The notes beneath the pieces are model-generated. The model ran no database searches, was not told the DNA's origin, and saw only the letters and a list, made by a program, of their open reading frames with translations. The position numbers and the translations under genes were made by a program. A stretch of 64,000 nt of DNA from Candidatus Hadarchaeota archaeon (GTDB lineage: Archaea > Hadarchaeota > Hadarchaeia > Hadarchaeales > JAGGTB01): NCBI GenBank assembly GCA_964384105.1, contig CAYLJV010000005.1, positions 1-64,000 on the forward strand, read 5' to 3'. Positions 1-38,380 of the stretch are shown here, one piece after another (position 1 is the first letter of the stretch; every line of letters begins with the position of its first letter).

Positions 1-19
1 TTATGGGTGTAACAAAAAA
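1..19 (+). repeat. Dispersed 26-bp palindromic element, copy 1 (truncated by window edge)
   Basis: TTATGGGTGTAACAAAAAA is identical to the right part of the other copies. Confidence 0.9.
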
Positions 20-66
20 TTTTGGAAAAGAACAAATAGTAAGAAAAATATTACTAATTTGATAAA

Positions 67-348
67 GTGAGTTTTGAAGCATATATACCCCTCCTGGCCC
101 CATTCATCATAGGTCTTCTCGTAGGAGTAGTAATAAAAAAAGGGTTGAAATTAATTTTAGCAGTAATAGCCCTAATAATAGCCCTTGTAGCCACCGGGTA
201 CCTCTCAATAGGATTTTCAGAAGTAAGAGATAGGGCGATGGACTATCTGCCTAGGATCCTAGGAGAGGCAAGGAACGAGTTTCAAATTCTCCCCTACTCC
301 AGCGCAGCTTTTTTGATAGGAATAGCTCTGGGCCTCTGGAAGGGTTAA
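67..348 (+). CDS. Small membrane protein (FUN14-like)
   Basis: 93 aa with three hydrophobic segments; pattern IIGLLVGVVIKKGLK ... AFLIGIALG. Confidence 0.6.
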   Translation: MSFEAYIPLLAPFIIGLLVGVVIKKGLKLILAVIALIIALVATGYLSIGFSEVRDRAMDYLPRILGEARNEFQILPYSSAAFLIGIALGLWKG

Positions 349-420
349 AAATAGAATAAAATTGATCAAAACATTAATCCTAAGAAGAAGGAACCTTAAA
401 GGCTTCTCAGATGGATAAAG

Positions 421-1212
421 ATGGAAATCCTACCAATACACAACACCAGAGCTCTTAAAATAGAACTAGAAGGAGAAAAAGTACTCATAGTAGCCGATCT
501 CCACATAGGAATATCTGCAGAACTGGCAAAAAAGGGAATAGAAATACCAAGTCAAGCAAAAAAGATAGAAAAAAAGCTAATCAGACTGATCGAAAAAGAG
601 AAATCGGATCGTCTCTTTTTGCTTGGGGACATAAAACATAATATTCCCATAACAAGCTGGGAAGAATGGAGTAATCTGCCTGGATTTTTTTCTAAGTTAA
701 ACGATAAAACTCGAGTAGAAGTAATACCTGGAAATCACGATGGAGACATAGAAGGTTTGATCACAAAAAATATCATATTGCACGGGCCTGAAGGAACAAC
801 AGTAGGAAATGGAAAAGTAGGTTTAATACACGGCCACGCCTGGCCGGCTCCGAAGCTTCTTGAAGCAGAAGAAATAATCATGGGGCACAACCACCCAATT
901 ATAGAATTCAAAGACAATTTAGGAGGTAGAGTCACAGAACCTGCCTGGATAAGAGGGAAAATAATTCCGGAAAAATTTCCTAAAAGATTTCAAAAACACC
1001 TGGAGGGAAAGCGACCACCAAAAATTACAATAATACCAGCCTTCAGCGAATTAGTTGGTGGAGGAGCAATAAACAGAGAGATTCCGGAAAAACTTCTTGG
1101 TCCCCTTTTCAAATCCGGGGCAATAGACCTAGAGGAGGCCGAAGTATATCTATTGGACGGAACATTTCTAGGAAAACTAAAAAATCTGAGAGGACTCAAC
1201 AAGACAGATTAA
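421..1212 (+). CDS. Calcineurin-like metallophosphoesterase (ICC-like archaeal family)
   Basis: DLHIG, LGD, GNHD, HGH and GHNHP motifs. Confidence 0.9.
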   Translation: MEILPIHNTRALKIELEGEKVLIVADLHIGISAELAKKGIEIPSQAKKIEKKLIRLIEKEKSDRLFLLGDIKHNIPITSWEEWSNLPGFFSKLNDKTRVEVIPGNHDGDIEGLITKNIILHGPEGTTVGNGKVGLIHGHAWPAPKLLEAEEIIMGHNHPIIEFKDNLGGRVTEPAWIRGKIIPEKFPKRFQKHLEGKRPPKITIIPAFSELVGGGAINREIPEKLLGPLFKSGAIDLEEAEVYLLDGTFLGKLKNLRGLNKTD

Positions 1213-1297
1213 AAAATTTATTCAGAGACCTTGATAGAATTAATCGCCTCAAGACAAGTTTTATAAATAAATACCAGAAGTAGGGAAGGGATAAAAT

Positions 1298-2662
1298 TTG
1301 ACTGACGTTTTTATTATCGGGGCCGGTCCCGCAGGCCTCTTTGCTGCAAAAGAGATTGCTGAAAATTCCAATCTTTCCGTAAAAGTCATAGAAGAAGGAA
1401 AAGCCATCTCCGACAGAAGCTGTCCTGCAACAGAGACTGGCGAATGCAAAGGATGTGAACCCTGCGACGTTATGCATGGAGTTGGGGGCACCGGTGGTAT
1501 GTCGGATGGTACCCTCAACTTAAGCCCTTACATAGGTGGGGATCTGACTGAGTATGTTGATATAAGAGAAGCCGAAGAGCTCATAGAGATTGTTGATTCA
1601 ACTTTTCAGGAATTTGGAGCCTCAAAAAAGCTCTACGGAGGAAAAAAAGCGGAAACCGAAGAACTAGAAAGAAAGGCCGCTGCTTCAGATGTCAAATTCA
1701 TTCCTATAAAACAGAGGCACATGGGATCCGAAAACCTCCCAAGGATAATCTCCTCTTTCAGAAAATATCTTGAGAAAAAGGGAGTAGAGTTCCAAATAAA
1801 CACAAGAGTCGACGAAATAACCCGTGATGGGATCGCGATAAACGGGGAAAAATTCAATCCAAAATACATAATCGCAGCCCCAGGAAGGTCCGGAGCAGTC
1901 TGGTTGGCCAAACAAGCCAAGAGATTAAGCCTCAAAGTATCTCACGGACCTATAGACGTGGGGATAAGAGTGGAGGTGCCTTCAATCGTAATGGAACCCG
2001 TGATAGAAGTCAATAGAGATCCTAAATTCCATATCAGAACAGAATCCTTCGACGATTTCGTGAGGACTTTCTGCACCAATCACGAGGGCTTCGTCGTTTC
2101 AGAAAGATACGAGGAGTACATCGGGGTCAACGGCCATGCGCTGAAATCAGATAAATCCAGAAACACCAACTTCGCCTTCATCTCCAGAGTCACCTTGACT
2201 GAACCTGTCACAAATACAACCGCCTACGGGGAATCTATCAGTTATCTGGCCACTACCATCGGAGGAGGTCTCCCCGTGGTTCAAAGACTGGGAGATCTGA
2301 GAAGAGGTCAGCGGTCCACCTGGAGCAGGATAGATAGGGGCCACGTAGAACCAACCCTCAAGAGCGTGACTCCAGGGGATATATCCATGGCTCTGCCCGG
2401 CCGAATTGTCACAAACCTACAGGAAGGCCTCAATCAGCTGGACAAAGTTATCCCGGGGGTTGCTTCAAATTCTACCCTGCTTTACGCCCCAGAAGTAAAA
2501 CTGTATGCTATGAAGGTAAGGGTCAATAAAAATATGGAGACTGATTTAGAGAACTTCTTCGTGGCTGGAGACGGAGCTGGTCTCTCTAGGGATATAGTGA
2601 ACGCCGCCGCGACGGGCATAATAGCCGCCCGAGGAATAATGAAAAAGTCCAAGGGAAAATAG
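1298..2662 (+). CDS. FAD-dependent oxidoreductase (COG2509-like)
   Basis: GAGPAG Rossmann motif, Cys cluster, RTFC, VNGH and AGDGAG. Confidence 0.85.
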   Translation: MTDVFIIGAGPAGLFAAKEIAENSNLSVKVIEEGKAISDRSCPATETGECKGCEPCDVMHGVGGTGGMSDGTLNLSPYIGGDLTEYVDIREAEELIEIVDSTFQEFGASKKLYGGKKAETEELERKAAASDVKFIPIKQRHMGSENLPRIISSFRKYLEKKGVEFQINTRVDEITRDGIAINGEKFNPKYIIAAPGRSGAVWLAKQAKRLSLKVSHGPIDVGIRVEVPSIVMEPVIEVNRDPKFHIRTESFDDFVRTFCTNHEGFVVSERYEEYIGVNGHALKSDKSRNTNFAFISRVTLTEPVTNTTAYGESISYLATTIGGGLPVVQRLGDLRRGQRSTWSRIDRGHVEPTLKSVTPGDISMALPGRIVTNLQEGLNQLDKVIPGVASNSTLLYAPEVKLYAMKVRVNKNMETDLENFFVAGDGAGLSRDIVNAAATGIIAARGIMKKSKGK

Positions 2663-2720
2663 AGAAGCGGTTAAATTCCCGAACATCTAATATCGATAAA
2701 TACTAATTTCAAACGATTTT

Positions 2721-2954
2721 ATGAAAAAAACAGTAATCATAATATTTGTGGTCGCAATCTCGTTCCTCGTAATATCCAACTATTACTCAAGCTGTCAAAA
2801 ATCAGACATAAAAACAGAAAATATCTCCGAAAATCCAGATTCTCTTAAAAAATACTCAGGTCTCGGATCATCCTATATCGCAAAGGGTCTACTATATCTC
2901 GGAATAGCTATTATTCTACTGATAGTTTGGCTTCTGCTACACTACAAATTTTAG
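2721..2954 (+). CDS. Hypothetical small membrane protein
   Basis: 77 aa, two hydrophobic segments, fills the intergenic gap. Confidence 0.5.
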   Translation: MKKTVIIIFVVAISFLVISNYYSSCQKSDIKTENISENPDSLKKYSGLGSSYIAKGLLYLGIAIILLIVWLLLHYKF

Positions 2955-2975
2955 CGAAAACTGCGAAATAAAAAA

Positions 2976-3001
2976 TTTTTTGTTATGGGTGTAACAAAAA
3001 A
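2976..3001 (+). repeat. Dispersed 26-bp palindromic element, copy 2
   Basis: TTTTTTGTTATGGGTGTAACAAAAAA between a convergent CDS and tRNA-Pro. Confidence 0.95.
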
Positions 3002-3040
3002 TCTGTTCAAAAACCGAAATTTTATGAACAAAAGATGAGG

Positions 3041-3130
3041 TGGGGTGGCGGGGATTCGAACCCCGGATCTCCAGCTTTTCCGCAAGGAGTCCCGAAGCTG
3101 GTGTCCTGAGCCTAACTAGACTACCACCCC
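3041..3130 (-). tRNA. tRNA-Pro(CGG) with 14-nt intron at position 37/38 (3077-3090)
   Basis: Acceptor GGGGTGG/CCACCCC, T-loop GTTCGAATC, anticodon stem CCAGC/GCTGG; the 21-nt loop TTCGGG-ACTCCTTGCGGAAA-A can form a bulge-helix-bulge. Confidence 0.9.
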
Positions 3131-3154
3131 TATTCGAAAGGAATTCTAAAACCA

Positions 3155-4342
3155 CTATGCCCTCTCAAGAATTTTCTCGATCTCCTTCTCCACCATCTCA
3201 GGAGGCGCATCTGATATGCTTATCTTCTGGCTCTTCCCCACTTGTCCCTCGCCCGACATCTCTGAATCGATCAACCCCAAATTCTTCGCTCTCTCTATGT
3301 ACTTCCAAAACTGAGTATGGGCTCTAGGTTTCTCCTCGTACTCCTCGCACACAATCTTATACGCGTCTTCGACCTCTCCCGTGAGAATATAAGCTCTTTC
3401 AGAGGATTTCAACTTACGAGAAAGCGCCAACAAAAATAGGAGCTCGTGGAGGTTAAGGTCCACCAAGACGTCTTTCCTAATTCCCGGATGAATTTCAGCC
3501 TTCGCCATTCTAACGTGATTTGGGGAAACTTTTTCAACCTCACCCTGACTGGCTATTCTGCCAGCATACCAGAGAAGCTCCAGAGCAAACCGGGCATCAC
3601 CCCGTCTCGCAGAGATATCGGAGATAAGTTTAACCGCTTCATCTCTGACCATATCAGGCCTGAAAGCTACGTCAACTCTCTGACGTAAAATATCTGTAAT
3701 CTGCTCGGAGTTGTATTTGTCTAATTTTATCTGATTGTGCATAAAGGAACTCCTAGTTGCATCGTCCAAGAGTTCGAGGAAATTAGGGGTATGAGAAATA
3801 GCGATCAAGCTAATCCGATTTACGGAATCAGATTCCTCCGACACCCTAGTGAGAGAATACAGCAGATCGGGCCCGTTATTTCTGACAAAGTAGTCGAGCT
3901 CGTCCAAAGCGAGAGTCAAATAAGTATCCTTCTTCTCGAGATAATCCACTATCTGCTCCATAAGCTCCTGGGAGGAAAAACCTCTTCTGGGAACACTCAG
4001 TGGAAAATTACTCGAAAGCTTGTGGAGAACCATTTGAGGGGTTCCCTGCTTACGACAGTTTATATGTGCGTAGATAAGGTTTGTTCCCTTATCTTTTGCT
4101 ACAGACTTGAGTTCTTTACCAAATCTTGAAGTCAGAGCAGTCTTACCTACACCAACTGACCCAGTGATGAGAACTCTTTGACTGGCCCTATTCTCTAATA
4201 GCGGTCTGAACAGCTGGACAAGCTTTCTGAATTCCTCATCCCTATGAACGAGTTCCTTGGGAACGTAATCAGGGGAAAGCTTCGACTGGTCTTTAAAAAC
4301 CGTCTTTTTGGACATCTCCTCTTCAAAAAAATCTCTATACAT
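3155..4342 (-). CDS. cdc6: Orc1/Cdc6 replication initiator
   Basis: DYVPKELVHR, Walker A GSVGVGKT, LDELD, GDARFAL, C-terminal winged helix. Confidence 0.95.
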   Translation of the reverse strand: MYRDFFEEEMSKKTVFKDQSKLSPDYVPKELVHRDEEFRKLVQLFRPLLENRASQRVLITGSVGVGKTALTSRFGKELKSVAKDKGTNLIYAHINCRKQGTPQMVLHKLSSNFPLSVPRRGFSSQELMEQIVDYLEKKDTYLTLALDELDYFVRNNGPDLLYSLTRVSEESDSVNRISLIAISHTPNFLELLDDATRSSFMHNQIKLDKYNSEQITDILRQRVDVAFRPDMVRDEAVKLISDISARRGDARFALELLWYAGRIASQGEVEKVSPNHVRMAKAEIHPGIRKDVLVDLNLHELLFLLALSRKLKSSERAYILTGEVEDAYKIVCEEYEEKPRAHTQFWKYIERAKNLGLIDSEMSGEGQVGKSQKISISDAPPEMVEKEIEKILERA

Positions 4343-4457
4343 TTTTTATCATAGTCAATTATTCGTGAAAGTAACTAAAAAAACTGGATAATTCAAATAT
4401 TAAAACATAGCAAATTTTAATCCTTTAAAATCGAGTTACAAAGGAATATAAAAAGCT

Positions 4458-4946
4458 CTATTCTGTAGTCCTCCATGAAGGTCTAGCCACTAAAAGAGAA
4501 CAAGGGGCTTCATGGATAACGTTCTCAGTAACGCTACCGTAGAGAAACTTCTGGATCTTTCCTTTAGTGCTCTTGTCGTGCAACCTTCCAGAACCCATAA
4601 CTATCAGATCAACCCCTTCCTGCTGGGCAGTCTTGACTATTTCGACATCAGGCTTTCCCTCTTTAATCTTCGTAGTTATATTTTCTAGTCCTCTCTCCTT
4701 GCACATCTTCCTAATCTTCTCGAATTCCTCCTGAACCTTCTCCCTCTTCATCTCGTGAATTCTGCTCCTCTCCGACATGGGGACTCTATTATCAGAGTGG
4801 AGGACATGCAAGAAGATTAATTCGGGCTCCTCAACACCTAGATAACACCCTCTGGCAAAATCCATAGCATTTATAACTCCGCTGAGGGTATTATCCCACT
4901 TTATGGAGTCCAAAGGAACTAAGATTTTCTCTATCACTAGAAACAC
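4458..4946 (-). CDS. Universal stress protein (UspA family)
   Basis: KILVPLD, DLIVMGS and GSVTENVIHEAPCSLLV. Confidence 0.9.
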   Translation of the reverse strand: MFLVIEKILVPLDSIKWDNTLSGVINAMDFARGCYLGVEEPELIFLHVLHSDNRVPMSERSRIHEMKREKVQEEFEKIRKMCKERGLENITTKIKEGKPDVEIVKTAQQEGVDLIVMGSGRLHDKSTKGKIQKFLYGSVTENVIHEAPCSLLVARPSWRTTE

Positions 4947-4981
4947 CTTACTCTCTTATTTGTAATATGACAAGTAAAAAA

Positions 4982-6313
4982 CTACTGTGGAAGTAACGGG
5001 ATATGAAAACTTGTAGAAATTTGGGCCAGCAACGCTAGAGCGGCTATTCCAACTGTGATTATACCTATCACGGACCCGTATTTTAGCCAGTAAACAAAGG
5101 TGAAGGGATACATATGGTCCTCGCTTACTTTGCACGCAACCACATTCGCGGAAGAACCTATATAGGTAAAGTTTCCTCCGAATCCTGCTCCGAAAGCTAA
5201 AGCCCACCATAGGATGCTAGAAGAAAGTCCAAGTTGAGTAGTCAGAGCTCCTACAACGGGAATCATCATGGCCGTAAAGGGAATATTATCTATAAAAGCA
5301 GATCCTAAAGCGGCCAATAAGAGAATAACTAAGGCACTGAGAAGGAGGCTACCCGAAGTCAATTCGAGGACTCCCGAAGCCAAGCTTGAGAGTAAACCCG
5401 TCTTAACAACTCCATGAACTAGCACAAATAATCCTGCAAAAAACAAGAGTGTAGTCCATTTTACCCTCGTTATAATCTTATCTATATCAGGTCTTGTGAC
5501 AAATAGAATCAGAGCAGCCCCTATAAGGGCTACGGTCGCTGGCTCTAAACCGATCAGATGATGGGTGACAAATAAGATAATAACAAAGAAAAGTACAGAA
5601 ACGCTTTTCTTAAGAAGACCCCAGTCTCTGATCTCCGTAGAAGGCTTTTCTCTCATTAGTTTTTCCAATGAACTTTTCCTAATCTTAGAATCTTCCTTTT
5701 TGACTTTTTCAGAGAAAACTATCTTGAAAGCCAATGTTGATGCCAAAAGACATACTATAACCACAGGAGCAAGATTGACTACAAACTCGGAATAACTGAG
5801 ATTTGCCGAACTCGCAATCATAACATTTGGAGGGTCTCCTACTAAGGTAGCCACTCCACCAATATTTGAGAAAAGTGCTTCTGTTATTATTATCGGCCTA
5901 GGATCGACCCCAAGCCTGGAACAGATGGCTAATGTGATCGGGACTACAAGCAATATCGTTGTAATGTTATCTATAGTAGTCGAAGCCATAGCCGTGAATA
6001 AGCCGAAAAGAAGCATCATGTAAAAATATCGGCCCTTTGATATCCTAGCGATCCAAACTGACAGTGACTCAAACATTCCCGTATCTTCCAATACCCCAAC
6101 TATCAGCATCATTCCCAGAAGCAACCCTATCGTATTCCAATCTATAGCATCTATCACAACTTCCGACTGCGTATAAAACCCAAAATAGAGACCTGCAATA
6201 ACCATCGAAACAGCGCCCATCATCGTAGCTATAGATCTTTCGACTTTACCGCTTACAATTGCCCCATAAGTAGCCACAAAGATTAGAAGGGAAACTACTA
6301 AGCTCGCTTCCAA
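4982..6313 (-). CDS. ArsB/NhaD (IT superfamily) ion transporter
   Basis: Polytopic membrane protein; IDNITT, SNIGGVATLVGDPPN, IDNIPF, GGNFTYIGSSAN. Confidence 0.9.
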   Translation of the reverse strand: MEASLVVSLLIFVATYGAIVSGKVERSIATMMGAVSMVIAGLYFGFYTQSEVVIDAIDWNTIGLLLGMMLIVGVLEDTGMFESLSVWIARISKGRYFYMMLLFGLFTAMASTTIDNITTILLVVPITLAICSRLGVDPRPIIITEALFSNIGGVATLVGDPPNVMIASSANLSYSEFVVNLAPVVIVCLLASTLAFKIVFSEKVKKEDSKIRKSSLEKLMREKPSTEIRDWGLLKKSVSVLFFVIILFVTHHLIGLEPATVALIGAALILFVTRPDIDKIITRVKWTTLLFFAGLFVLVHGVVKTGLLSSLASGVLELTSGSLLLSALVILLLAALGSAFIDNIPFTAMMIPVVGALTTQLGLSSSILWWALAFGAGFGGNFTYIGSSANVVACKVSEDHMYPFTFVYWLKYGSVIGIITVGIAALALLAQISTSFHIPLLPQ

Positions 6314-6406
6314 AAAATCACCCTTCCAGTAGAAGTATCCAAATTAATCACTCCGCCTGATAAGGAACCACGAATTATAAGCTCTTTTCATTAAATATAC
6401 CCATTC

Positions 6407-7564
6407 TTATGAGACGGGTGCCGGCCTCTTCTTTCTGTAACCTACTATAACCCTAGCGTAACCCCTCAATCTATCGTCCAACTCCGGGTCGCCCGTATCC
6501 ACTTTAAGCATAGATGTTTCGACCAATTTATTCGGGGTAGCCAAAACTAAGAGATTATCGATTCCCACGGCTTTGATCACTCGGGGGCTGATTTGTTGAT
6601 TTCCTCTTCCAAAAACAAAACCTTGTTTGCCAATCGGGCTTACTATTATCGTCGTCGCACCTTCTTCCTCAACCTTTTCATAGATTTCATTTTCTCTAAC
6701 ATCTTTGGCAATCAATTTCCCATTTTTGATCAAATCTATTCCTAAGAGTGTAGAGTCGGATATACCCAATTCCTCTGCAACCGCTCTAGTCGTCGTTCCT
6801 GGTCCAAGCAAATACAGACGATTATCATCCATAAGTTCAGTGACCCAACGAGCTATCGACTTCTGATCTTCTTTTTCAGAGCCGGAAGAAGGGGTAGGAG
6901 ATTTAGCGGCTTGAACCCAGTGTGGGTCGTAAGGAACTTTGGCATATCCCTTCAAATCAGTCGAAAGTCTATTTTCTCGAAAAGCTTCTTCATCGACATC
7001 CATAACCTCTGCTTCCCTTAAAGGAAGGTTTCCCATTAAATACCTCGAAACCAATCGGCCAGCAATTTCGGGAGTGTTAGCGAAAACAGCAGAATGCATC
7101 TTCACTCCCGTAGGGATTCCCAATATAGGAACATCCATATTCACTATCTCTACCACATCTCTGGCTGTTCCATCGCCTCCAGCAAAAAGGATAATATCAA
7201 CACCTTCCTCGAGAAATCTACTCATAGCACTCTTCGTATCCTCGGGAGAAGTATCACTAGGGTTAATTTCCTCCAGAACTCGGGGTTCAAAACCCACCTC
7301 CCTTGCTTCGTTTGCACCCATTTCATCGGAAAAACATAGTATCTCAGGTTCCACTCCAGAATCTTTAAGTTTCTTTAGCGCTTTGATCGCCCGCTCCGGA
7401 GCAACCGGCTCGGAACCTAATTCTCTGGCTTTCTTAAGAATCTCGGGGCCGTCAGTTCCTTTAAGACCCACCTTACCGCCCATCCCTGCAATAGGATTAA
7501 CTAACAAACCAACCTTATTTTCAGGCAAGTCTATCCCCCTCTTATTAACTGTCACAGCATTCAA
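6407..7564 (-). CDS. ATP-NAD kinase family protein (true start probably TTG at 7528)
   Basis: NPIAGMGGKVGLKGTDG, GGDGTARD, GVKMHS, GRGNQQ. Confidence 0.85.
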   Translation of the reverse strand: MNAVTVNKRGIDLPENKVGLLVNPIAGMGGKVGLKGTDGPEILKKARELGSEPVAPERAIKALKKLKDSGVEPEILCFSDEMGANEAREVGFEPRVLEEINPSDTSPEDTKSAMSRFLEEGVDIILFAGGDGTARDVVEIVNMDVPILGIPTGVKMHSAVFANTPEIAGRLVSRYLMGNLPLREAEVMDVDEEAFRENRLSTDLKGYAKVPYDPHWVQAAKSPTPSSGSEKEDQKSIARWVTELMDDNRLYLLGPGTTTRAVAEELGISDSTLLGIDLIKNGKLIAKDVRENEIYEKVEEEGATTIIVSPIGKQGFVFGRGNQQISPRVIKAVGIDNLLVLATPNKLVETSMLKVDTGDPELDDRLRGYARVIVGYRKKRPAPVS

Positions 7565-7659
7565 GATAAAAACGTCCCTTTTGAAATTTTAATTTTAAAG
7601 ATTTGGGAGATCAAGGTATTGAGATCGATATTATTTAATTTCATAACCAATAGACAGGC

Positions 7660-8082
7660 TTATCCTTCAGATTTTAAAAATTCTTTATAGGACTTTGAAT
7701 CCATTAACTCCTCCAAATCCTCTTCAAGGTTAGAAGGCCTAATAACACAGATCCATCCTTGCCCATAAGGATCCTCATTTATCAGCTCCGGTTGTGCCTG
7801 CAAATCCTCGTTAACTTCCTCTACGCTTCCCATAACAGGAGAGTATATATCAGAAACTGTTTTAACTGATTCCACTGCACCCAATTCAGCCTCCTTAGAA
7901 CTTCCTTCCTCGTATCTTTCAACTTTATCTCCGATAGGTGGTAACTCAACAAAAACAACATCCCCTAACTGTTCCTGTGCATAATCACTAATCCCTATCC
8001 TGACCAGATCTCCTTCAACTTTAATCCACTCATGCTCCGGAGTATAATATAGACCCTCAGGAATTTCCGTTTCTTCAGCCAA
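7660..8082 (-). CDS. gcvH: Glycine cleavage H protein / lipoyl carrier
   Basis: HEW, GISDYAQEQLGDVVFVELP, lipoyl-Lys motif VESVK, INEDPYGQGW. Confidence 0.95.
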   Translation of the reverse strand: MAEETEIPEGLYYTPEHEWIKVEGDLVRIGISDYAQEQLGDVVFVELPPIGDKVERYEEGSSKEAELGAVESVKTVSDIYSPVMGSVEEVNEDLQAQPELINEDPYGQGWICVIRPSNLEEDLEELMDSKSYKEFLKSEG

Positions 8083-8137
8083 TCTTACACCCTCCTAGCT
8101 CTTTGGTAGATTCTTAACTTAAGTATTTCGCAAAATC

Positions 8138-9118: not shown

Positions 9119-9122
9119 TAGA

Positions 9123-10022: not shown

Positions 10023-10023
10023 A

Positions 10024-10779
10024 CTACCGTTTCCTTATCCAATCCTCTGAAGCGTATCTGTCCTTCAAACTTTTAACCAGACCTCTCTCTCCTTCAGTTA
10101 ACTCTCCAAAAGAAATTTCGGCTCCAAATTCTCTCTCAAAACCAGTGACCATAGCGTCTCTAACCTCAGTAAAACTAGGCCTATTTTCCAGTTCTCGAAA
10201 AATTGAGGTTACTCTCTTATAAACGGAAGAAACAAATTTATCCGTAATCTTCTCTGGAGATACTTTTAGTAATCTAAACATCAACCTAATATCTGGATCT
10301 ATCAGTATAGTTCCATGCTGAAGAACCGCTCCATAACGCCGAGTTTGGGCACTTCCCGAGATTTTTTTATCATTTACTAAAACATCATTGACCTCACTGT
10401 AATTCGCGTCTAAACCCAAAACACGAAATCCACCAACTAGACCATTACATATTTTTTTGAAAGACTCGATTATATCAGTAGGAACCTCTTCCAACTTAGA
10501 AACGAATGAATAAGTCAATTCACCGTAACTGTCATGGAAAACAGCCCCACCACCACTTATTCTTCTAACGATATCGACATTATTTTGAGAAGCCTGTTCC
10601 TCATCAATCTCGTATTCAAAACTTTGAAAACAACCGAGTGAAACTGCAGAAGGTCTCCATCGATAAAATCTCAGGGTGGATGGAGAATCTCCTCTACCAA
10701 CCGATCTCAAAATCGCCTCATCGGTCGCCATATTTTCCGCCGCAGTGGCAATGCTCAAAGGAATTAATCTATATTCCAT
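10024..10779 (-). CDS. lplA: Lipoate/octanoate-protein ligase catalytic subunit
   Basis: NMATDEAI, VRRISGGGAVFHD, KKISGSAQ, LQHGTIL. Confidence 0.9.
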   Translation of the reverse strand: MEYRLIPLSIATAAENMATDEAILRSVGRGDSPSTLRFYRWRPSAVSLGCFQSFEYEIDEEQASQNNVDIVRRISGGGAVFHDSYGELTYSFVSKLEEVPTDIIESFKKICNGLVGGFRVLGLDANYSEVNDVLVNDKKISGSAQTRRYGAVLQHGTILIDPDIRLMFRLLKVSPEKITDKFVSSVYKRVTSIFRELENRPSFTEVRDAMVTGFEREFGAEISFGELTEGERGLVKSLKDRYASEDWIRKR

Positions 10780-11875: not shown

Positions 11876-11901
11876 TTTTTTGTTATGGGTGTAACAAAAA
11901 A
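11876..11901 (+). repeat. Dispersed 26-bp palindromic element, copy 3 (abuts the stop codon of the orphan gene)
   Basis: TTTTTTGTTATGGGTGTAACAAAAAA. Confidence 0.95.
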
Positions 11902-12462
11902 TTATAGTTTCTGTCTAAGAGGTTCAATCATATTGTTCAGTTCTTCAGAAAATTTTGAATCATCCGACCAATCGTGATCCATTAACTCACCACACTGTCT
12001 AACCACCCTCTTAATTCTTTCTAATTCCTCTGATTCTATAGAACCTCTCTTTTCTATTGATCTAAGATATTTAATTTCCGAAAACAGCGGCTCATCGCGA
12101 GTAACTTTTACCCTCTCAAGAGCCTCATGCATAGCCCTCAATCGATCTTCAGAAGGTAAGATACCATCGAAAGCATATAGATCTATGGAACCCCACTTGG
12201 AATTCTCAAAGAAATCGTCCAATGACTTTTCAGCTCTTTTAGGAATAGCTATTACACTTTTTCCGAGCCTAAGATGAGGAATTGGAGTTAATACTCCAGG
12301 ATAAAGATTTTCGTAAGTTTTTTCTCTCCCCTTTTTATCTTCTCTGGTTGTTTTAGACCTAAATCCAAACAACTTCCTATAGAACTTTGTTCTATTACTT
12401 CCACCAAACTTAAGATCAAAGCTATAAATTCTTGCTAGGATTTTCCCATCAATCTTCATCAC
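11902..12462 (-). CDS. Hypothetical origin-adjacent protein (basic N-terminal domain, helical acidic C-terminus)
   Basis: 186-aa ORF with no competing ORF, bracketed by two repeat copies. Confidence 0.75.
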   Translation of the reverse strand: MMKIDGKILARIYSFDLKFGGSNRTKFYRKLFGFRSKTTREDKKGREKTYENLYPGVLTPIPHLRLGKSVIAIPKRAEKSLDDFFENSKWGSIDLYAFDGILPSEDRLRAMHEALERVKVTRDEPLFSEIKYLRSIEKRGSIESEELERIKRVVRQCGELMDHDWSDDSKFSEELNNMIEPLRQKL

Positions 12463-12485
12463 TTTTTGTTATGGGTGTAACAAAA
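12463..12485 (+). repeat. Dispersed palindromic element, copy 4 (abuts the start codon of the orphan gene)
   Basis: TTTTTGTTATGGGTGTAACAAAA. Confidence 0.95.
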
Positions 12486-12528: not shown

Positions 12529-12556
12529 CACCACCACCCCTTCATTTCCACTGGAG
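12529..12556 (-). promoter_or_regulatory. Origin recognition box (ORB) with G-string
   Basis: Reverse complement CTCCAGTGGAAATGAAGGGGTGGTGGTG matches the archaeal ORB consensus TCCA-N3-GAAA plus G-run. Confidence 0.85.
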
Positions 12557-12581
12557 TAATAAAAACAATAAAAAACGATAT

Positions 12582-12607
12582 TTTTTTGTTATGGGTGTAA
12601 CAAAAAA
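12582..12607 (+). repeat. Dispersed 26-bp palindromic element, copy 5 (inside the origin, between the ORBs)
   Basis: TTTTTTGTTATGGGTGTAACAAAAAA. Confidence 0.95.
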
Positions 12608-12699: not shown

Positions 12700-12727
12700 T
12701 TCCACTCGAAACGTAGGGGGTGGTGTG
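12700..12727 (+). promoter_or_regulatory. Origin recognition box (ORB) with G-string
   Basis: TTCCACTCGAAACGTAGGGGGTGGTGTG. Confidence 0.85.
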
Positions 12728-13849: not shown

Positions 13850-14740
13850 ATGACAATCTCCCTAGGTTATCTAGAATTTAAAAGTAAACTAATCTATTTC
13901 TTTAAGGTGTTCGAGTTGAGATCTAAGGCGAGGTCGATAGCCATATCTTCTGGTAAAGGGGGAACCGGAAAAACCACTCTGACCGCCAATTTGGGGATAG
14001 CTCTTGCGAATGAAGGGTATGATGTGACTATTCTTGATGGGGATCTGAGTATGGCAAATTTAAGCATAATTATGGGTATGAATACCTGTCCTGTTAGCTT
14101 CTTAGATGTCATTTCTGGCGATGCGGACCCAAGCGATGCAGTCTATACAGATTATGGGGTTAAGGTAGTGCCTACAGGTTTCAGGTTTGAGGAAATACAT
14201 GAGAGCTTATCTGAAGTAAACCAGGATGTTGTAGAGGTGGCCGTAGAAGAGCTTCTAAGTCAGACCGAATTTCTCCTGATAGATGTTCCTGCGGGGATGA
14301 CTGATACGACTATAATTTCGATTGCAGCTGCAAGAGAAATGCTTCCGGTAACGAACCCGAGCTATTCTAGTCTGGTAGACACTTACAAGACCATTAGGCT
14401 GGCTAATGTTGTGGATACTTGGACTCGTGGACTTGTCGTAAATAGAGTTGGAAAAAATTCAGATATTTCTAGAAGAGAAATAGAGCACTTTATGGGGAAG
14501 ACATTAGGTTCAATTTCGGTCCTTTCGGAAATACCGGATGATGATAAAGTTCAAGAGGCGGAGCGGGAGGAGGTTCCTATAATGGTTTATTCTCCCCAGT
14601 CTTCTGCGGCCAGATCGATCTACGAGCTTGCCAAAATTGTTACTGGTGAATCTGATCTCCCTTATGAACTCTATGAAGAAGGAGAAGTGGATTTGACGGT
14701 GAAGAGACTTTCTAGGGCTTTGGTTGGACGAAGGTCTTAG
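13850..14740 (+). CDS. minD: MinD/ParA family ATPase (likely start TTG at 13916)
   Basis: Deviant Walker A SGKGGTGKTT, DGDLSMANL, IDVPAG, VVNR. Confidence 0.85.
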   Translation: MTISLGYLEFKSKLIYFFKVFELRSKARSIAISSGKGGTGKTTLTANLGIALANEGYDVTILDGDLSMANLSIIMGMNTCPVSFLDVISGDADPSDAVYTDYGVKVVPTGFRFEEIHESLSEVNQDVVEVAVEELLSQTEFLLIDVPAGMTDTTIISIAAAREMLPVTNPSYSSLVDTYKTIRLANVVDTWTRGLVVNRVGKNSDISRREIEHFMGKTLGSISVLSEIPDDDKVQEAEREEVPIMVYSPQSSAARSIYELAKIVTGESDLPYELYEEGEVDLTVKRLSRALVGRRS

Positions 14741-15495: not shown

Positions 15496-15521
15496 TTTTT
15501 TGTTATGGGTGTAACAAAAAA
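15496..15521 (+). repeat. Dispersed 26-bp palindromic element, copy 6 (abuts the stop of the hydrogenase protease gene)
   Basis: TTTTTTGTTATGGGTGTAACAAAAAA. Confidence 0.95.
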
Positions 15522-33425: not shown

Positions 33426-36400
33426 CTGAAAGATTATTTCTCTATTTTGGACGAAGGACTGGAAAAGGCCTATGAAACTGCTAAAAAGGCTAGAAAGAGA
33501 GGATTTGATCCAAAAGATGAACCCGAGATTCCTTTGGCGGAGGATCTCGCTGCTAGGGTAGAGAAGCTGGCTGGACCGGAGGGGGTTGCGGAGGCGATTA
33601 GAGACCTTGAGAAGGATTACTCCCGAGAGGATCTGACTTTCAAGATCGCAGAGATGATTGTTGACGATGAATTTGGACACCTTTCCGATAGTGAAGCAGC
33701 TGAACAGTCTGTTAGAACTTGTTTGGCTATTATAACTGAGGGGGTTGCTGCCGCTGCACCCATAGAAGGAATAACAAAAGTTGATATAAAGGAAAATTTT
33801 GATGGTTCCCTCTATCTGGCTATCTATTTCGCGGGTCCTATAAGGTCCGCGGGGGGGACTGCAGCTGCGCTTGCGGTACTACTGGGAGACTTTGTTAGAA
33901 GGAAGATGAATTTGAGTTCCTATGAACCCTCAGATCTTGAAGTGGAGCGATTTGTGGAAGAGGTAAATATCTACGGGGATACTGTAGGATTACAGTATAC
34001 GCCAAGAGAAGATGAGGTTAGAGAAGCATATCAGAATATTCCTGTTGAAGTAACGGGTGAACCCACTGAACAGGAGGTTGTAACTGGGTACAGAAATCTT
34101 GAGAGAGTTGAGACAAACAGGGTGAGGGGAGGTGCAGTTCTGGCCATAGCCGAGGGTGTTCTTCAGAAGGCACCAAAGATATTGAAGCACCTTGATAATT
34201 TGGGCTTAGGTGGATGGGAGTGGCTCAGTGATTTGCAGAAGCCCTCTTCGTCTGAGGAAGAGGAGAAGCAGAAGTATCCAAAAGGGGATAAATATCTTAA
34301 GGACATTATAGCTGGCCGAGCGGTTTTTAGCCATCCTGGTAGACCCGGTGGTTTTAGATTAAGATATGGGCGTGCTCGCAACACAGGACTTGCTGCCGCG
34401 GGTGTTCACCCTGCGACGATGAGGATCTTGGATGATCATATCTCCACTGGTATACAACTGAAGACTGAGCGTCCAGGGAAAGCGACAGCTGTTTCCCCTG
34501 TTGATTCGATCGAAGGTCCTACTGTACTTTTGAAAGATGGTTCAGTAATCCGTTTGGATTCAGCTTCAGTAGCTAAGGATATCAAAGACGATGTTAAGGA
34601 AATATTGTCTCTTGGAGATATTCTCTTTGGTTATGGTGAGTTCTTGGAAAATAATCATCCATTGATGCCTTCCGGTTATTGCCAGGAGTGGTGGTCTCTA
34701 GAGGTCAAAAAAGAACTCAAAAATAAAGACTTCGAAGAAGATTTGGCTCCTTACTTAGAACCCCCCTTCGAAACCCCCAGTCCAGGACTTGCTTTAGAAG
34801 TTTCTAGGAATCTAGATGTTCCTCTTCATCCTGACTTTACTTTCAATTATCACGATTTGGAGATAGAGGAAATTGAAAGGTTAGGGAACTGGCTGGCTTC
34901 TTGTGATGCTAGTTTCGAAGGAGAGATTTTAGGAAATCTTCGCGGCAATCTCGATAAAGACTCTAAGAGAATGTTGGAGGTTTTGGAAGTTCCCCATGAT
35001 GTTGAAGGTGATGAGATCATTATTGGGGAGGAGTCGCTTCCCCTCTGTGAAAGTCTGGGCCTTGTTGAGGGTGAAAATTTAAACTCTAATCGTCTTAGCT
35101 CCGCTGTCCGGGAGAATAGTGAGTTAGACACAGTAGATTTATTGAACTTAGTGGCAGGATTTCCGATCAGAGAAAAGGCTCCCACTCGTATAGGTGCAAG
35201 AATGGGCCGTCCCGAGAAAACTAATCCAAGAAAGATGAGTCCTCCCCCGCATGTTTTATTCCCGATAGGGTGGGCCGGAGGGAATACGAGAAATGTGGGC
35301 AAGGCATCCGACAAGGAAAATGTACAGATCGAGGTTGCACATTGCGAGTGTCCTGAATGTGGTGAGGTTACTATTCTCAACAAATGTCCCAGCTGTGGTA
35401 CTAGGACAGAGATGACCCGTTATTGCACTAAATGTGAACGACCTTCGAAAGAAGAAAATTGTGTTGCGTGTGGGGGTCGAGCAACTTTCTATCGTGAAAG
35501 AGAAGTGGACCTTAAGTCCTTTTTGAATGACGCACTTGGTAGGTTAGAGGAAGGTATTCCAGGAACTCTTAAGGGAGTAAAGGGAATGACTAGTGCATAT
35601 AAACTCCCTGAACCTCTCGAAAAAGGTATTCTCAGATCAAAACATGATGTTTATGTTTTTAAGGATGGGACTATAAGATTTGATGCTACGGATTTGCCCC
35701 TTACACATTTCTACCCTCGTGAGATAGATGTTTCAGTTGAACGACTTAGGGAGATGGGTTATACTGAGGATTATAGAGGAGACCCTTTGGAAAATGAAAA
35801 TCAGATCTTGGAGCTGAAGGTTCAAGATATACTTCTATCAAAATCTGCAACGGGCTATCTCTTAAAGACTGCCCAATTCGTTGACGATTTGCTAGAGAAG
35901 TTTTACGACTTGCCTCCATTCTACAATGCGAATGAGAAGGAGGATTTGATTGGTCATCTCGTGATTGGCCTTGCCCCTCACACTTCTGCTGGAATAACTG
36001 GTAGGATAATTGGATTCTCGGAAGCCAATGTTGGATATGCTCATCCTTACTTTCATGCCGCTAAGAGAAGGAATTGTTTCAATTATGATCATAGAGTTTT
36101 CTTTTACGATGAAAGTGTTGATAAATTTGTGACTAGTAAGGTAGGCGAATTAGTTGAGAATAGGTTTCAAAATAAGGAGCCAATACCCTTAGATAATTTC
36201 GGTACCGAAAAGGTCTGTTCCGATGGTAATCTATATGCTTATGTTTTAGATAGGGAGTCTGGAAAACTTGTTAAGAAACCGATTAATTGCTTTATTAGAG
36301 GAAGGACCGAGAAGTGGGTGAATATTACTACTTCGACTAACAGAGAGCTGAAAGTCACTCCAGGTCATAATATTTCTGTTATGGAGGATGGGGAGCTTAG

Positions 36401-38357
36401 AGTAAAAAAAGCTATTGAGATTAGTGAAGGAGATAGAATCCCTATTTCTTTGAAAACTCCTATTGAGACAAAAATAGATAACCTAAACCTAGCTAGAGAA
36501 CTCTCTACTTTAGAAGAAGAAAAACTTATGCAGATAAGAATAAGAAACGTTGAAGAATTTTTTGTTCAGATTATGGAGGAAATAGGAAAGAAAAAGCTTT
36601 ACGAAATCTGTGGAGGTGCGAAGAGCTTTCCAAAAAGTTTGTCGGATTGGTACAAGAGTGTGCCTTTGTTACATTTCAAGAAGATATGTAGTGAGGGTGT
36701 AAGAGATTACGAGGATTTACCTAAAGATGCGAAACTGGGTATTAGACGAGATAGTGTTGCACTCCCCTGTTACATTGAAGATATACTTTCATTGTTCTGG
36801 CTTTTAGGGATGTATTGTGCAGAAGGCTGGTCTAGATCAACAGAAAGTTCTCATCAGGTCTCTTTTAGAATAGGAAATGAAAGGTTGAGAGAAAGAGTAA
36901 AATCTGCTATAAAAAGCGTTTTTGGACTAGATCCATATGAGAAAAATGGAAAGCTTACATATTCCTCAAAGATACTCCGGTTCCTTATTTCGAATGTTTG
37001 GAATGCGGGTTCTTCTGCTTACGAGAAAAAAGTTCCAGAAATAGTTTACCATGGCGATGACGAGAAAGTGAAGGCTTTCCTATCTGCTTATTTTGATGGG
37101 GACGGAAGCATTAGTCTTTCCCCCGATAGAGTAACTTTCTATTCAGTTTCGAAGAAGCTTTTGGAGGGAATCTCAAATCTACTTTTGAGAGTTGATGTAT
37201 TCTCACGGTATCTAAGAACCGGTTTGAGAGAGCCGGGAAGAACGGTGGCTAGGAAATACAAAAAACGTGGGAAGGAACCTGTAGAACATCGTTTGTATCA
37301 TTTAGTATTGACGGGGGAGGATAGGTATAAATTCGCTTCTTATGTCCAACCTGTCTCTGAAAAGAAGCGAGATAGAGCTTCTAAAATGGCAGAATTTTCA
37401 CCCGAGAATGCTAAGAGGCTTATAAATTACAAGGGTAAAAATTACGAAGCAACCCCCTCTAGCGATTATACTTTTGATGTAGTTAAGGGAACTTCGGTAT
37501 TGAAAACACGGGGTGAAAAAACTTATTGTATTGATGTAGATGGGGAAGAAATATTGGACAAAAATGTTCTCTGGCATAATCAACTTGTACAATTACGATG
37601 TGATGGCGATGAAGATGCGATAATGTTGCTTCTCGATGGCCTCTTGAATTTCAGTCGTTATTACCTTCCTGAGACTCGAGGCGGGAAAATGGATGCTCCG
37701 CTTGTTTTAACTCCTCACTTGGACCCTTCTGAAATAGATGACGAGGCACACAATCTCGACGTGGACGAGATTTATCCATTGGAATTCTATGAGGCTTCTT
37801 TACTTTACGAGAATCCCAGTAAACTATCTTCAAAGATTGGAATTGCCGAGAATAGGTTGGGTACTGAGGAGCAATATAAAAATCTCAGTTTTTCTGAAGC
37901 CCATAATCCTACATCTATTTCTGCAGGTCCTACGTCCTGCCGATACAAGTCTTTGGGTCCTATGGAAGAAAAGACAGATTCTCAACTTTCCTTAGCAAGA
38001 AAAATTCGTGCTGTTGACGAATCTGATGTAGTTGAAAGGTTGATCGAGAACCATTTTATTCCAGATCTAAAAGGTAATCTCAGAGCTTTCTCTCGTCAAA
38101 AGTTCCGTTGCGCTTCGTGTAATTCAAAATACAGGCGGGTTCCTCTTACTGGTAAGTGTACTAATTGTGGTGAGAATTTGATCTTGACGGTCACTAAGGG
38201 AGGAGTAGAGAAGTATATAGATGTAGCTAGAAGGGTTGCTGGAGAATATGGGGCCTCTCAGTATACTAAACAGAGGCTGAGACTAGTCGAAGAGGAGATC
38301 GAGTCCGTCTTTGTCAGTGATATAAAAGAGCAGCTGAGTCTGGCAGATTTTGTATAG
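33426..38357 (+). CDS. polC: DNA polymerase D large subunit DP2 with intein (likely CTG start at 33426)
   Basis: AGPIRSAGGT, GGFRLRYGR, RMGRPEK, HAAKRRN/CDGDED, C-terminal PIP-like QLSLADF. Confidence 0.97.
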   Translation: MKDYFSILDEGLEKAYETAKKARKRGFDPKDEPEIPLAEDLAARVEKLAGPEGVAEAIRDLEKDYSREDLTFKIAEMIVDDEFGHLSDSEAAEQSVRTCLAIITEGVAAAAPIEGITKVDIKENFDGSLYLAIYFAGPIRSAGGTAAALAVLLGDFVRRKMNLSSYEPSDLEVERFVEEVNIYGDTVGLQYTPREDEVREAYQNIPVEVTGEPTEQEVVTGYRNLERVETNRVRGGAVLAIAEGVLQKAPKILKHLDNLGLGGWEWLSDLQKPSSSEEEEKQKYPKGDKYLKDIIAGRAVFSHPGRPGGFRLRYGRARNTGLAAAGVHPATMRILDDHISTGIQLKTERPGKATAVSPVDSIEGPTVLLKDGSVIRLDSASVAKDIKDDVKEILSLGDILFGYGEFLENNHPLMPSGYCQEWWSLEVKKELKNKDFEEDLAPYLEPPFETPSPGLALEVSRNLDVPLHPDFTFNYHDLEIEEIERLGNWLASCDASFEGEILGNLRGNLDKDSKRMLEVLEVPHDVEGDEIIIGEESLPLCESLGLVEGENLNSNRLSSAVRENSELDTVDLLNLVAGFPIREKAPTRIGARMGRPEKTNPRKMSPPPHVLFPIGWAGGNTRNVGKASDKENVQIEVAHCECPECGEVTILNKCPSCGTRTEMTRYCTKCERPSKEENCVACGGRATFYREREVDLKSFLNDALGRLEEGIPGTLKGVKGMTSAYKLPEPLEKGILRSKHDVYVFKDGTIRFDATDLPLTHFYPREIDVSVERLREMGYTEDYRGDPLENENQILELKVQDILLSKSATGYLLKTAQFVDDLLEKFYDLPPFYNANEKEDLIGHLVIGLAPHTSAGITGRIIGFSEANVGYAHPYFHAAKRRNCFNYDHRVFFYDESVDKFVTSKVGELVENRFQNKEPIPLDNFGTEKVCSDGNLYAYVLDRESGKLVKKPINCFIRGRTEKWVNITTSTNRELKVTPGHNISVMEDGELRVKKAIEISEGDRIPISLKTPIETKIDNLNLARELSTLEEEKLMQIRIRNVEEFFVQIMEEIGKKKLYEICGGAKSFPKSLSDWYKSVPLLHFKKICSEGVRDYEDLPKDAKLGIRRDSVALPCYIEDILSLFWLLGMYCAEGWSRSTESSHQVSFRIGNERLRERVKSAIKSVFGLDPYEKNGKLTYSSKILRFLISNVWNAGSSAYEKKVPEIVYHGDDEKVKAFLSAYFDGDGSISLSPDRVTFYSVSKKLLEGISNLLLRVDVFSRYLRTGLREPGRTVARKYKKRGKEPVEHRLYHLVLTGEDRYKFASYVQPVSEKKRDRASKMAEFSPENAKRLINYKGKNYEATPSSDYTFDVVKGTSVLKTRGEKTYCIDVDGEEILDKNVLWHNQLVQLRCDGDEDAIMLLLDGLLNFSRYYLPETRGGKMDAPLVLTPHLDPSEIDDEAHNLDVDEIYPLEFYEASLLYENPSKLSSKIGIAENRLGTEEQYKNLSFSEAHNPTSISAGPTSCRYKSLGPMEEKTDSQLSLARKIRAVDESDVVERLIENHFIPDLKGNLRAFSRQKFRCASCNSKYRRVPLTGKCTNCGENLILTVTKGGVEKYIDVARRVAGEYGASQYTKQRLRLVEEEIESVFVSDIKEQLSLADFV
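36075..37598 (+). mobile_element. 508-aa intein with LAGLIDADG homing endonuclease in DP2; atypical C-terminal Arg
   Basis: Splits KRRN|CDGDED; begins with Cys; block B VTPGH; LGMYCAEG and FLSAYFDGDG; block F TYCIDV; ends VQLR. Confidence 0.92.
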
Positions 38358-38380
38358 TTTGTTACACCCATAACAAAAAA
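38358..38380 (-). repeat. Dispersed palindromic element, copy 7 (inverted; abuts the DP2 stop)
   Basis: TTTGTTACACCCATAACAAAAAA is the reverse complement of the family sequence. Confidence 0.95.

Follow-up and report, generated by a model that had tools for sequence, protein, structure and literature searches.

A palindrome family at the replication origin of Hadarchaeota, probably read by a previously undescribed small protein

The stretch of DNA analysed here, referred to as the window, covers the first 64,000 nucleotides of a contig (CAYLJV010000005.1, C5 below; window = C5:1-64000) of a Candidatus Hadarchaeota archaeon. It carries a replication origin marked by a pair of origin recognition boxes (ORBs), a 26-bp palindromic repeat with copies in and around this origin, and the gene of a 186-aa orphan protein, P0001, which is proposed to read the palindrome. 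The source assembly (G000) amounts to 1.617 Mb in 12 contigs and was studied within a set of 41 genomes of its order, including six other genomes of its genus (g1) and 34 of other genera; the prefixes G, C and L denote genomes, contigs and loci. The features on which the argument is built are the following, in window positions.

1..20, + strand: partial palindrome copy, its left arm degenerate in the overlapping contig (from the contig start and the overlap with C12).
2976..3001, + strand: palindrome copy of the form T6-GTTATGGGTGTAAC-A6, downstream of orc1/cdc6, with a 77-aa open reading frame (ORF) on one side and the tRNA-Trp 3' end on the other.
3155..4342, − strand: Orc1/Cdc6 initiator gene, 8 kb from the ORB pair (Cdc6_lid 3e-22, Cdc6_C 1e-18).
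11876..11901, + strand: palindrome copy in a convergent junction, directly adjoining the 186-aa gene at its stop codon.
11902..12462, − strand: gene of the 186-aa orphan protein P0001, the proposed palindrome reader.
12463..12485, + strand: palindrome copy with its core 7–20 bp upstream of the P0001 start codon (operator position).
12537..12555, − strand: origin recognition box ORB1, G-string pointing left.
12581..12607, + strand: palindrome copy inside the origin, between the inverted ORBs and adjoining an AT-rich stretch (core 12588–12601).
12701..12719, + strand: origin recognition box ORB2, G-string pointing right.
13850..14740, + strand: gene of a P-loop ATPase of the archaeal MinD type, part of a conserved block that also comprises P0001, the origin and TyrRS (TIGR01969, 232.7 bits, above cut-off).
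15496..15521, + strand: palindrome copy, 6 bp past the stop codon of a HycI-like gene and 37 bp before a SpoIIM-like gene.
38358..38380, − strand: inverted palindrome copy, 3 bp past the stop codon of PolD DP2 and 28 bp before the threonine synthase gene.

The repeat consists of a 14-mer core (GTTATGGGTGTAAC) with five to seven T on its left and about three to seven A on its right. When the window was scanned for this core with up to one mismatch, six matches were found, all of them exact, with 0.01 expected and none of 100 shuffles reaching six. The cores lie at 2982, 11882, 12468, 12588 and 15502 on the + strand and at 38361 on the − strand. A seventh copy is truncated by the contig start, where the window opens with TTATGGGTGTAACAAAAAA, and contig C12, which shares a 55-nt overlap with C5, reveals its degenerate left arm (ctctttagCTTATGGG..). 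The seven intergenic copies reported in the initial annotation were borne out in this form, six exact and one truncated, as were the T/A arms and the invariant spacer, which is the same in every copy. Scanning of the whole assembly gave 23 hits, 21 exact and two with one mismatch, and the number of unique copies was set at 22 because two copies appear twice, on overlapping contig ends. The earlier remark that copies cease after 38.4 kb was correct for the window, but not for the contig, on which a further copy lies at C5:79515, nor for the assembly. None of the 23 hits fell inside a gene as called by a crude ORF finder, which assigned 86% of the genome to coding sequence. Aligned as a logo, 83 copies from six species gave the consensus A-T6-GTTATGGGTGTAAC-A6-T, with T in 94–100% of the copies at positions −5 to −1 and A in 98–99% at +14 to +17, and the DNA outside the element is unrelated among these copies. 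The element is shared by all 83 although the P0001 orthologues are only 54–64% identical, which indicates constraint. A few copies are one-armed (C2:329, which lacks the A run, C12:1529, and those at L034 and L035). In an Rfam search at gathering score, covering the window and 17 loci with all copies of the source assembly, eight tRNAs were the only matches.

Some additional observations were made on the surroundings of the copies. Four copies in the source assembly are preceded, at 30–45 nt, by a common block of about 55 nt (TTATAGGTGACCTATATTAAATC..CAAATATTGCTT..ATTTGG), located at C1:190100-190176 (L004), C2:35662-35760 (L006), C2:156530-156615 (L009) and C5:79529-79620 (L014). This block, which had no Rfam match, could represent a promoter and a short RNA ending at the T run, or else a composite repeat. 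Two end sequences recur at many contig ends (the starts of C3, C4, C8, C12 and C9 and the ends of C1, C3, C7 and C10), and what appears to be a multi-copy, insertion-sequence-like repeat, itself unassembled, breaks the assembly at these points and also beside the first palindrome copy. The DP2 gene in front of the inverted copy (PolD large subunit, window 33447–38357) contains an intein with a LAGLIDADG homing-endonuclease domain at residues ~932–1378. When contigs from four DNA sequencing runs were aligned to window positions 1–20000, the loose ends were found to be other repeat copies and were uninformative on rearrangements.

The ORB consensus, TCCA[CG]T[CG]GAAANGNAGGGG, has just two matches in the 1.617-Mb assembly, inverted with respect to each other (C5:12537, − strand, and C5:12701, + strand). 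One repeat copy lies between the two boxes, and a further one occupies the interval from ORB1 to the beginning of the 186-aa gene. The clustering of copies at the origin with one copy inside it, as first described, was confirmed: the 15 kb on either side of the ORB pair contain six of the 22 copies, a number reached by none of 20,000 random placements on intergenic bases, and a scan statistic for the fullest 30-kb interval reached six copies in 8 of 5000 placements. End overlaps of 55 nt give the contig orders C12-C5-C1 and C10-C2-C11-C7. On the first of these scaffolds, copies occur from 1.5 to 280 kb and are followed by 527 kb without any; the second (316 kb) holds nine copies, and the remaining ~0.5 Mb on other contigs holds one. 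Altogether, 21 of the 22 copies fall within 37% of the assembly bases, a domain that was defined post hoc and assumes that the two scaffolds are adjacent. The distribution is, thus, strongly non-uniform and centred on oriC in the source assembly, and the origin contigs of three other genomes are similarly enriched. The 68-kb origin contig of G006 carries 8 of the 13 copies of that genome; in two genomes of the family f5, 10 of 21 copies lie within 17.8 kb around the origin (G018) and 12 of 30 on the 32-kb origin contig (G012). Additionally, 5 of 17 copies in G002 are on one 108-kb contig. A Ter-like polar fork trap was also considered and is argued against by the orientation of the sites, which does not flip at the origin.

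The arrangement at the origin is conserved well beyond the genus. P0001 loci from at least 10 genera (n = 19) were oriented on the gene and marked for ORB-like boxes and sites, and a site of the type GTTAC-N4-GTAAC was found upstream of the gene in all of them. The order ORB-site-ORB was observed in every locus where both ORBs were detected by pattern, and in the 11 loci with both, the site is separated from the gene-proximal ORB by 42–49 bp, the interval being AT-rich. Four g1 species have the origin triple, and with respect to the gene their 12 origin copies all point the same way. Nearly all loci retain the order P0001-origin-TyrRS, and the MinD-type ATPase gene follows TyrRS in g1, G007 and G017; it is itself followed by the convergent SpoIIM-like gene and not by a gene for a small DNA-binding protein. 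The ATPase is considered a possible partner of P0001. Downstream of the P0001 gene, several genera (L097, L098, L099, L100, L103 and L117), but not the source assembly, have a conserved stretch, ..TTACTTTCGG(T/C)(C/G)ACCTCTCTC..CCCTTAA.., which may be an unannotated RNA or another protein site.

The exact 14-mer was found in five of the six other g1 genomes (17, 17, 9, 8 and 13 copies) and in none of the 34 genomes of other genera, and the reversed pattern used as a control never matched. As judged from sequence comparison, the g1 element is a genus-specific, asymmetric form of a Hadarchaeota-wide family of GTTAC-N4-GTAAC palindromes, described here as 5-N4-5. In the sister genera G007 and G008, TTTTGTTACACGTGTAACAAAA and TTGTTACATATGTAACAA accompany the 186-aa gene and the ORBs; more distant genera have the forms GTTACAATAGTAAC, GTTACGATAGTATC and GTTACTATAGTAAC, and in G004 the arms have diverged. 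The sites of the family f5, TGTCTGTTACCATGGTAACAGACA in G018 (21 copies) and TGTTACTATAGTAACA in G012 (30 copies), have neither T nor A runs and are arranged in pairs, with one additional seven-site array of ~57-bp spacing on a separate G012 contig. The spacers differ by genus (CACGTG, CATATG, TATAGT-type and TGGGTG), and copies are identical within each genome. A looser pattern, GTWMNNNNNNKWAC, was uninformative, its control matches outnumbering the pattern matches. The array in G012 (L123:3711-4067; G012:C18:11709-12067) comprises seven TGTTAC(C/T)ATAGTAACA sites spaced by ~52–64 bp after a 678-aa gene; it is iteron- or centromere-like and lies off the origin contig. In G007 (0.8 Mb), at least four loci on contigs C9, C17, C10 and C1 (L072–L075) carry a composite module of four to five sites, with class-B, class-A, class-B and class-B palindromes inside 220–350 bp. 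A literature search, with supplementary files outside its scope, did not find the g1 motif or the class-A strings, and among the matches listed for a class-B-like string all were clearly unrelated (a herpesvirus telomerase RNA and a human long non-coding RNA screen). The papers found on Hadesarchaea and replication origins, judged by titles and the beginnings of abstracts, did not deal with this topic.

The palindrome and the 186-aa protein were found to occur together. P0001 is present in 17 of the 41 genomes, and at least two copies of the g1 motif or of TGTTAC-N4-GTAACA were detected in 12 of these 17 and in none of the 23 genomes without P0001 (22 with no copy and one with a single copy), a contrast that overstates independence, since the genomes are related. 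The reversed-pattern control gave 0–1 hits. The remaining five P0001 genomes have variant arms or fell outside the examination, and G005, a 65% complete assembly with eight copies in which P0001 was not found, was set aside. The expectation that the palindrome would co-occur with homologues of the 186-aa gene was, therefore, sustained, with gene, palindrome and ORBs linked in the 19 loci. The same approach failed for the suggested analogy with bacterial parS. The ParB N-domain (PF02195) was detected in 15 of the 41 genomes, several of them without palindromes, and was not found in G002, G006, G007, G008, G012, G015 or G018, all of which bear palindromes (2–30 copies). ParB does not, in other words, track the sites.

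P0001 itself has no match in Pfam (even at an E value of 10), in NCBIfam or among PDB sequences, and sequence and profile searches of the PDB with it gave nothing below E 0.4. Its family comprises 22 clusters at E ≤ 0.001 among 1.84 billion representatives, and all 14 genomic loci found for it belong to Hadarchaeota. The AlphaFold (AF2) model is confident (predicted local distance difference test score 93.1, predicted template modelling score 0.85) and predicts a beta-alpha-beta-beta-alpha-beta ferredoxin-like domain (residues ~6–102) followed by a three-helix bundle (103–186). The N-domain is basic, with an isoelectric point (pI) of 9.9 (10.4 for helix 1 and the hairpin), and the C-domain acidic (pI 5.25); F15, D16, L31, G33, G56 and L66 are invariant. 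Foldseek searches of the PDB gave CutA (E 0.04), Cas2 (probability 0.95–0.97, with E 0.13) and PaaX (template modelling score 0.36), and a wide VIA search of the PDB gave Z values of at most 7.5, all of these matches being weak and generic. No credible match to P0001 was present in a viral structure library, and E2, EBNA1 and HUH domains were not among the credible matches in the fold searches of the PDB and the viral library. The ESM Atlas returned one archaeal cluster at a score of 0.88, which is taken as a lead. Membership in the Cas2 superfamily would agree with the fold and with the invariant D16 that closes strand 1, but the matches are weak (E 0.13, Z ≤ 7.5) and there was no Pfam hit; similarly, no Cas-family Pfam domain was seen among the neighbour genes scanned, and no search for a CRISPR array was made. 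Close to the P0001 gene, an ORF with similarity to HhH-GPD glycosylases (window 11510–11854, 114 aa) covers just the C-terminal part of the domain, and the DNA upstream (from 11170) looks coding in another frame; this may reflect a frameshift, a pseudogene or an assembly error.

The link between protein and palindrome is strengthened by the paralogues of P0001. A family of ~90-aa proteins (consensus LLVWDVKSRGSPATxFYRALxGY...), found in 34 of the 41 genomes, shares homology with the N-domain of P0001 (hhalign probability 97.5%, E 5.8e-12, 68 columns). In at least 17 of these 34 genomes, counting those examined that had a strict-pattern match beside the gene, one to four TTGTTAT-N4-ATAACAA palindromes lie ~10–50 bp upstream of its start codon. 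In the source assembly, the ~90-aa paralogue (C1:604252-604515) is flanked by its own palindromes (C1:604185-604545), two of TTGTTGTATATATAACAA and one of TTGTTATAATTATAACAA, which occur nowhere else in the genome. A third paralogue (C3:4361-4615) has GTAACACGTGTTAC 13 bp upstream of its start, the single copy in the genome. A fourth clade has TGCAC-N4-GTGCA upstream in 4 of the 11 loci examined, the other seven having none or a different palindrome. Four related proteins, each with its own 5-N4-5 palindrome at its own gene, make up the sequence pattern expected of dimeric, autoregulating DNA-binding proteins, and P0001 would, therefore, be the natural reader of the GTTAC-N4-GTAAC sites.

From the sites, their distribution, the origin architecture, the co-occurrence and the paralogue pattern, we infer that the palindrome is probably a protein-binding site. 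The fuller statement, in which it is P0001 that reads the site and the origin region in which the system plays its role, is also favoured, if more cautiously. The site would be bound as double-stranded DNA by a P0001 dimer through the basic ferredoxin-like N-domain. One kind of site would be a fixed part of oriC, placed between the inverted ORBs beside the AT-rich stretch and separated from one box by about four helical turns. A second covers the start of the P0001 gene together with its promoter, a position suggestive of autoregulation. A third would consist of exact copies that spread, in several lineages including g1, to intergenic positions, in most cases immediately behind a stop codon or a tRNA gene. 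The density of these dispersed copies peaks around the origin, and they keep to the origin-proximal third of the chromosome. The system as a whole would most likely mark and organise the origin region, by initiation control, domain organisation or segregation, perhaps together with the neighbouring MinD-type ATPase, and the T and A runs of g1 would halt RNA polymerase from both sides, shielding the bound site. A bolder version is tentative and rather doubtful, namely that P0001 is a third dedicated origin component, a palindrome binder of new fold held at a fixed phase in oriC, with the extra sites as a centromere or origin-domain organiser, and that it couples initiation and segregation as EBNA1 and E2 do, possibly with the MinD-type ATPase.

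Several observations weigh against P0001 as the reader of an origin element. The earlier proposal to this effect is supported by the distribution, the co-occurrence and the paralogue palindromes, but 16 of the 22 copies are found at gene ends over 15 kb away from the origin. The P0001 model contains no recognised DNA-binding fold, and its fold matches are weak. The g1 site is asymmetric in all copies, for which a simple homodimer does not account. G017, a genome in three contigs, has just two copies, both flanking the gene, so dispersal is not universal, and the post hoc limits of the 37% domain and the relatedness of the genomes compared count on the same side. The copies are also poorly conserved in position: for only 11 of the 23 hits does a copy in another species have a homologous gene beside it, and copy-holding junctions of relatives were syntenic with the source assembly in 3 of 18 cases, all three being the origin locus, compared with 39 of 53 other junctions (13 of 22 when the gap is at least 40 bp). 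The copies, therefore, turn over or sit at rearrangement points, and since point mutation could not produce exact 26-bp sites at such a pace, some copying mechanism would be called for. The identity of copies within a genome and their difference between genera point to rearrangement between copies, gene conversion or copy-and-paste. The empty site of the copy at 38361 was unreadable, the orthologue of the downstream gene having been found only in G004, where gene order is different.

The position of the copies at gene ends raises the possibility that they are bidirectional transcription terminators or insulators, favoured as a cassette at such places. The 84 g1 copies were divided by junction into 42 tandem, 21 convergent and 15 divergent ones, with six at locus edges (78 classified), and relative to the intergenic length of the source assembly (50% tandem, 18% convergent and 32% divergent) convergent junctions are enriched and divergent ones depleted. 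Stop codons facing a copy (n = 88) are within 3 bp of the 26-bp element in 18 cases and within 30 bp in 33, and five copies of the source assembly follow tRNA genes, 9–245 bp after them. Oligo-T terminates archaeal transcription, and T runs of 5–7 are present in 77 of 83 copies and A runs of 5–7 in 66, so that, with T5–7 met first on either strand, a g1 copy should stop archaeal RNA polymerase from both sides. Nevertheless, the invariant 14-bp core is needless for termination, the RNA would fold into a weak, AU-rich hairpin (−5.8 to −9.7 kcal/mol at 37 °C) transcribed only after the U run, the inter-ORB copy has a fixed spacing, a further copy is placed where P0001 begins, and the copies are concentrated in 37% of the genome, whereas terminators are needed everywhere. 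The homologous f5 sites lack both runs, and the runs were, therefore, read as a genus-specific shielding addition and not as the primary function. The orientation of the core relative to the direction of the upstream gene was mixed in the source assembly (~5:5), which makes a role of the loop at the RNA level unlikely. Termination is accordingly considered unlikely as the explanation of the family, and may well co-exist in g1 with the binding-site function. The copies might, alternatively, form an ordinary regulon, P0001 being a transcription factor with about 20 operators and its proximity to the origin mere conserved gene order. The overlap of one site with the promoter of P0001, the seemingly autoregulatory paralogues, the clustering of facing start codons 31–60 bp from the element (17 of 74) and a copy directly upstream of a metallophosphoesterase operon in G002, G005 and G006 all agree with this. 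It is, however, quite unlikely, given that most g1 copies abut stop codons, that the 21 convergent junctions offer no promoter, and that the flanking housekeeping genes have no common theme (PolD, TyrRS, TFB, tRNAs, threonine synthase and a glycosyltransferase). Moreover, the fixed spacing of the inter-ORB site is hard to derive from gene order alone, and the clustering at the origin recurs in two families.

The turnover of the copies bears on two explanations that invoke mobility. According to one, the palindrome is a mobile element like the repetitive extragenic palindromes (REPs), copied by P0001 as a nuclease- or transposase-like protein of Cas2/VapD-like fold in the way that RAYT proteins act with REPs. 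REPs are extragenic palindromes at gene 3' ends, lineage-specific and flanking a vertically inherited single-copy gene, and the present palindromes share with REP/RAYT systems the extragenic position, the flanking of a single-copy gene and the lineage-specific sequence: copies are found on both sides of the P0001 gene in G000, G002, G003, G006, G008, G017 and G026, they are identical within genomes with spacers differing between genera, and their positions turn over and sit at synteny breaks. The few one-armed copies and the weak Cas2 and VapD fold matches, together with the invariant D16, would also fit. Yet the Y1/HUH transposase (PF01797) has no match in the source assembly, in a search to which control genomes responded, and P0001 contains neither HUH nor any other catalytic motif beyond the invariant Asp. 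The paralogues hold their private palindromes only at their own promoters, as regulators do, the ORB spacing is fixed phylum-wide, and the copy number is low (2–30, with just two in G017), all of which sets the system apart from REP/RAYT, as does the element inside the origin. In addition, some copies retain a neighbour gene across species whose orthologues are ~60% identical, the other side changing, as seen for the metallophosphoesterase gene (four species), for Cdc6 with tRNA-Trp, and for MinD; a copy adjoins a Cdc6 homologue also in G003 and G006. The REP-like explanation was judged very unlikely. The other explanation is the core site of a tyrosine recombinase, driving rearrangements or cassette exchange, an analogy drawn in the initial annotation. 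The architecture (arm, 6-bp asymmetric spacer, arm) fits, as do the copies at synteny breakpoints and the location of two of the five integrase loci of the source assembly, those at the C10/C2 junction and at C2:155.2-156.0 kb, at most 1 kb from a copy. The analogy was not upheld in relatives: tblastn with the five integrases found no homologue in 46 loci (±1.5 kb) around 64 copies in five relatives. The sister-genus spacers CACGTG and CATATG are, furthermore, perfect palindromes without polarity, and P0001 is linked to the ORBs phylum-wide, whereas integrases are linked to neither, which leaves a recombinase site extremely improbable. Terminator, REP-like element, recombinase site and ParB/parS all fit worse than a protein-binding site.

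The integrase genes of the source assembly gave rise to some separate observations. Those at the C10/C2 junction and at C2:155150-156640 are less than 1 kb from palindrome copies, one of them being split into two ORFs, and the copy at C2:329 lies ~70 bp upstream of an integrase start codon. Within the window, at 41230–42803, the gene of a 330-aa tyrosine integrase (PF00589, 91.8 bits) comes after a tRNA-Ser (cga) gene, and between 42 and 48 kb the strand composition shows a strong skew; this region is probably an element integrated at the tRNA.

With the palindrome taken as the probable binding site of P0001, the system can be compared with those already described. According to a report on Sulfolobales (10.1101/2025.02.07.637068), SegB is a ribbon-helix-helix protein whose sites are 13-bp TCTAGA-S-TCTAGA palindromes, ~84% of them intragenic, which occur at the segAB promoter, cluster near that locus and number 46–49 in one chromosomal compartment. 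The likeness lies in a short palindrome upstream of the gene of its reader, clustering nearby, restriction to one compartment, a small archaea-specific protein and a ParA/MinD-type ATPase in the vicinity. P0001 differs in that its model is ferredoxin-like without a ribbon-helix-helix, the motif is another one, all sites are intergenic, one site is inside oriC, and reader and ATPase are not encoded in one operon, whereas segB directly follows segA. SegAB is the nearest described archaeal system. To our knowledge, it is also the only archaeal chromosome-segregation system that has been studied.

Among bacterial systems, parS is a palindrome of ~16 bp, present in a few to ~20 copies close to the origin. 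The concentration of palindromes near oriC is parS-like, and the sister-genus form TGTTACACGTGTAACA differs at just two symmetric positions from what we take to be the parS consensus, but the proposed reader is unrelated to ParB. The sites of MatP (matS), SlmA (SBS) and Noc (NBS) comprise ~20–70 copies of a 12–16-bp palindrome in one large chromosomal domain, and are read by small dimeric proteins in which a second domain mediates higher-order contacts. Unlike the present sites, they are bacterial, are bound by proteins of other folds, lie away from oriC or exclude the terminus, and include no site inside the origin. The viral proteins E2, EBNA1 and LANA bind through dimeric alpha/beta ferredoxin-like domains to palindromes with a 4-bp spacer or to 18-bp palindromes, which are located in the origin and in separate arrays for genome tethering; as no fold match to P0001 was obtained, they may serve as an analogy only.

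Archaeal origins have been described as ORBs with Orc1/Cdc6, plus WhiP at one Sulfolobus origin. The present origin resembles a canonical archaeal oriC in its two inverted ORBs and AT-rich interval, unique in the source assembly, and departs from it in the third conserved, sequence-specific element between the ORBs, the dedicated non-Orc gene adjoining it and the position of orc1/cdc6 8 kb away. A whole phylum has retained an extra sequence-specific element at fixed spacing in oriC, beside the gene of an orphan protein. If P0001 binds this site, it would represent a new family of DNA-binding folds with a readable code, in which four paralogue clades correspond to four half-sites, and origin control or segregation would become directly open to experiment in a group of archaea that is uncultured. 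Most likely, the palindrome points to a so far unknown extra part of archaeal replication origins that is read by a previously undescribed small protein.

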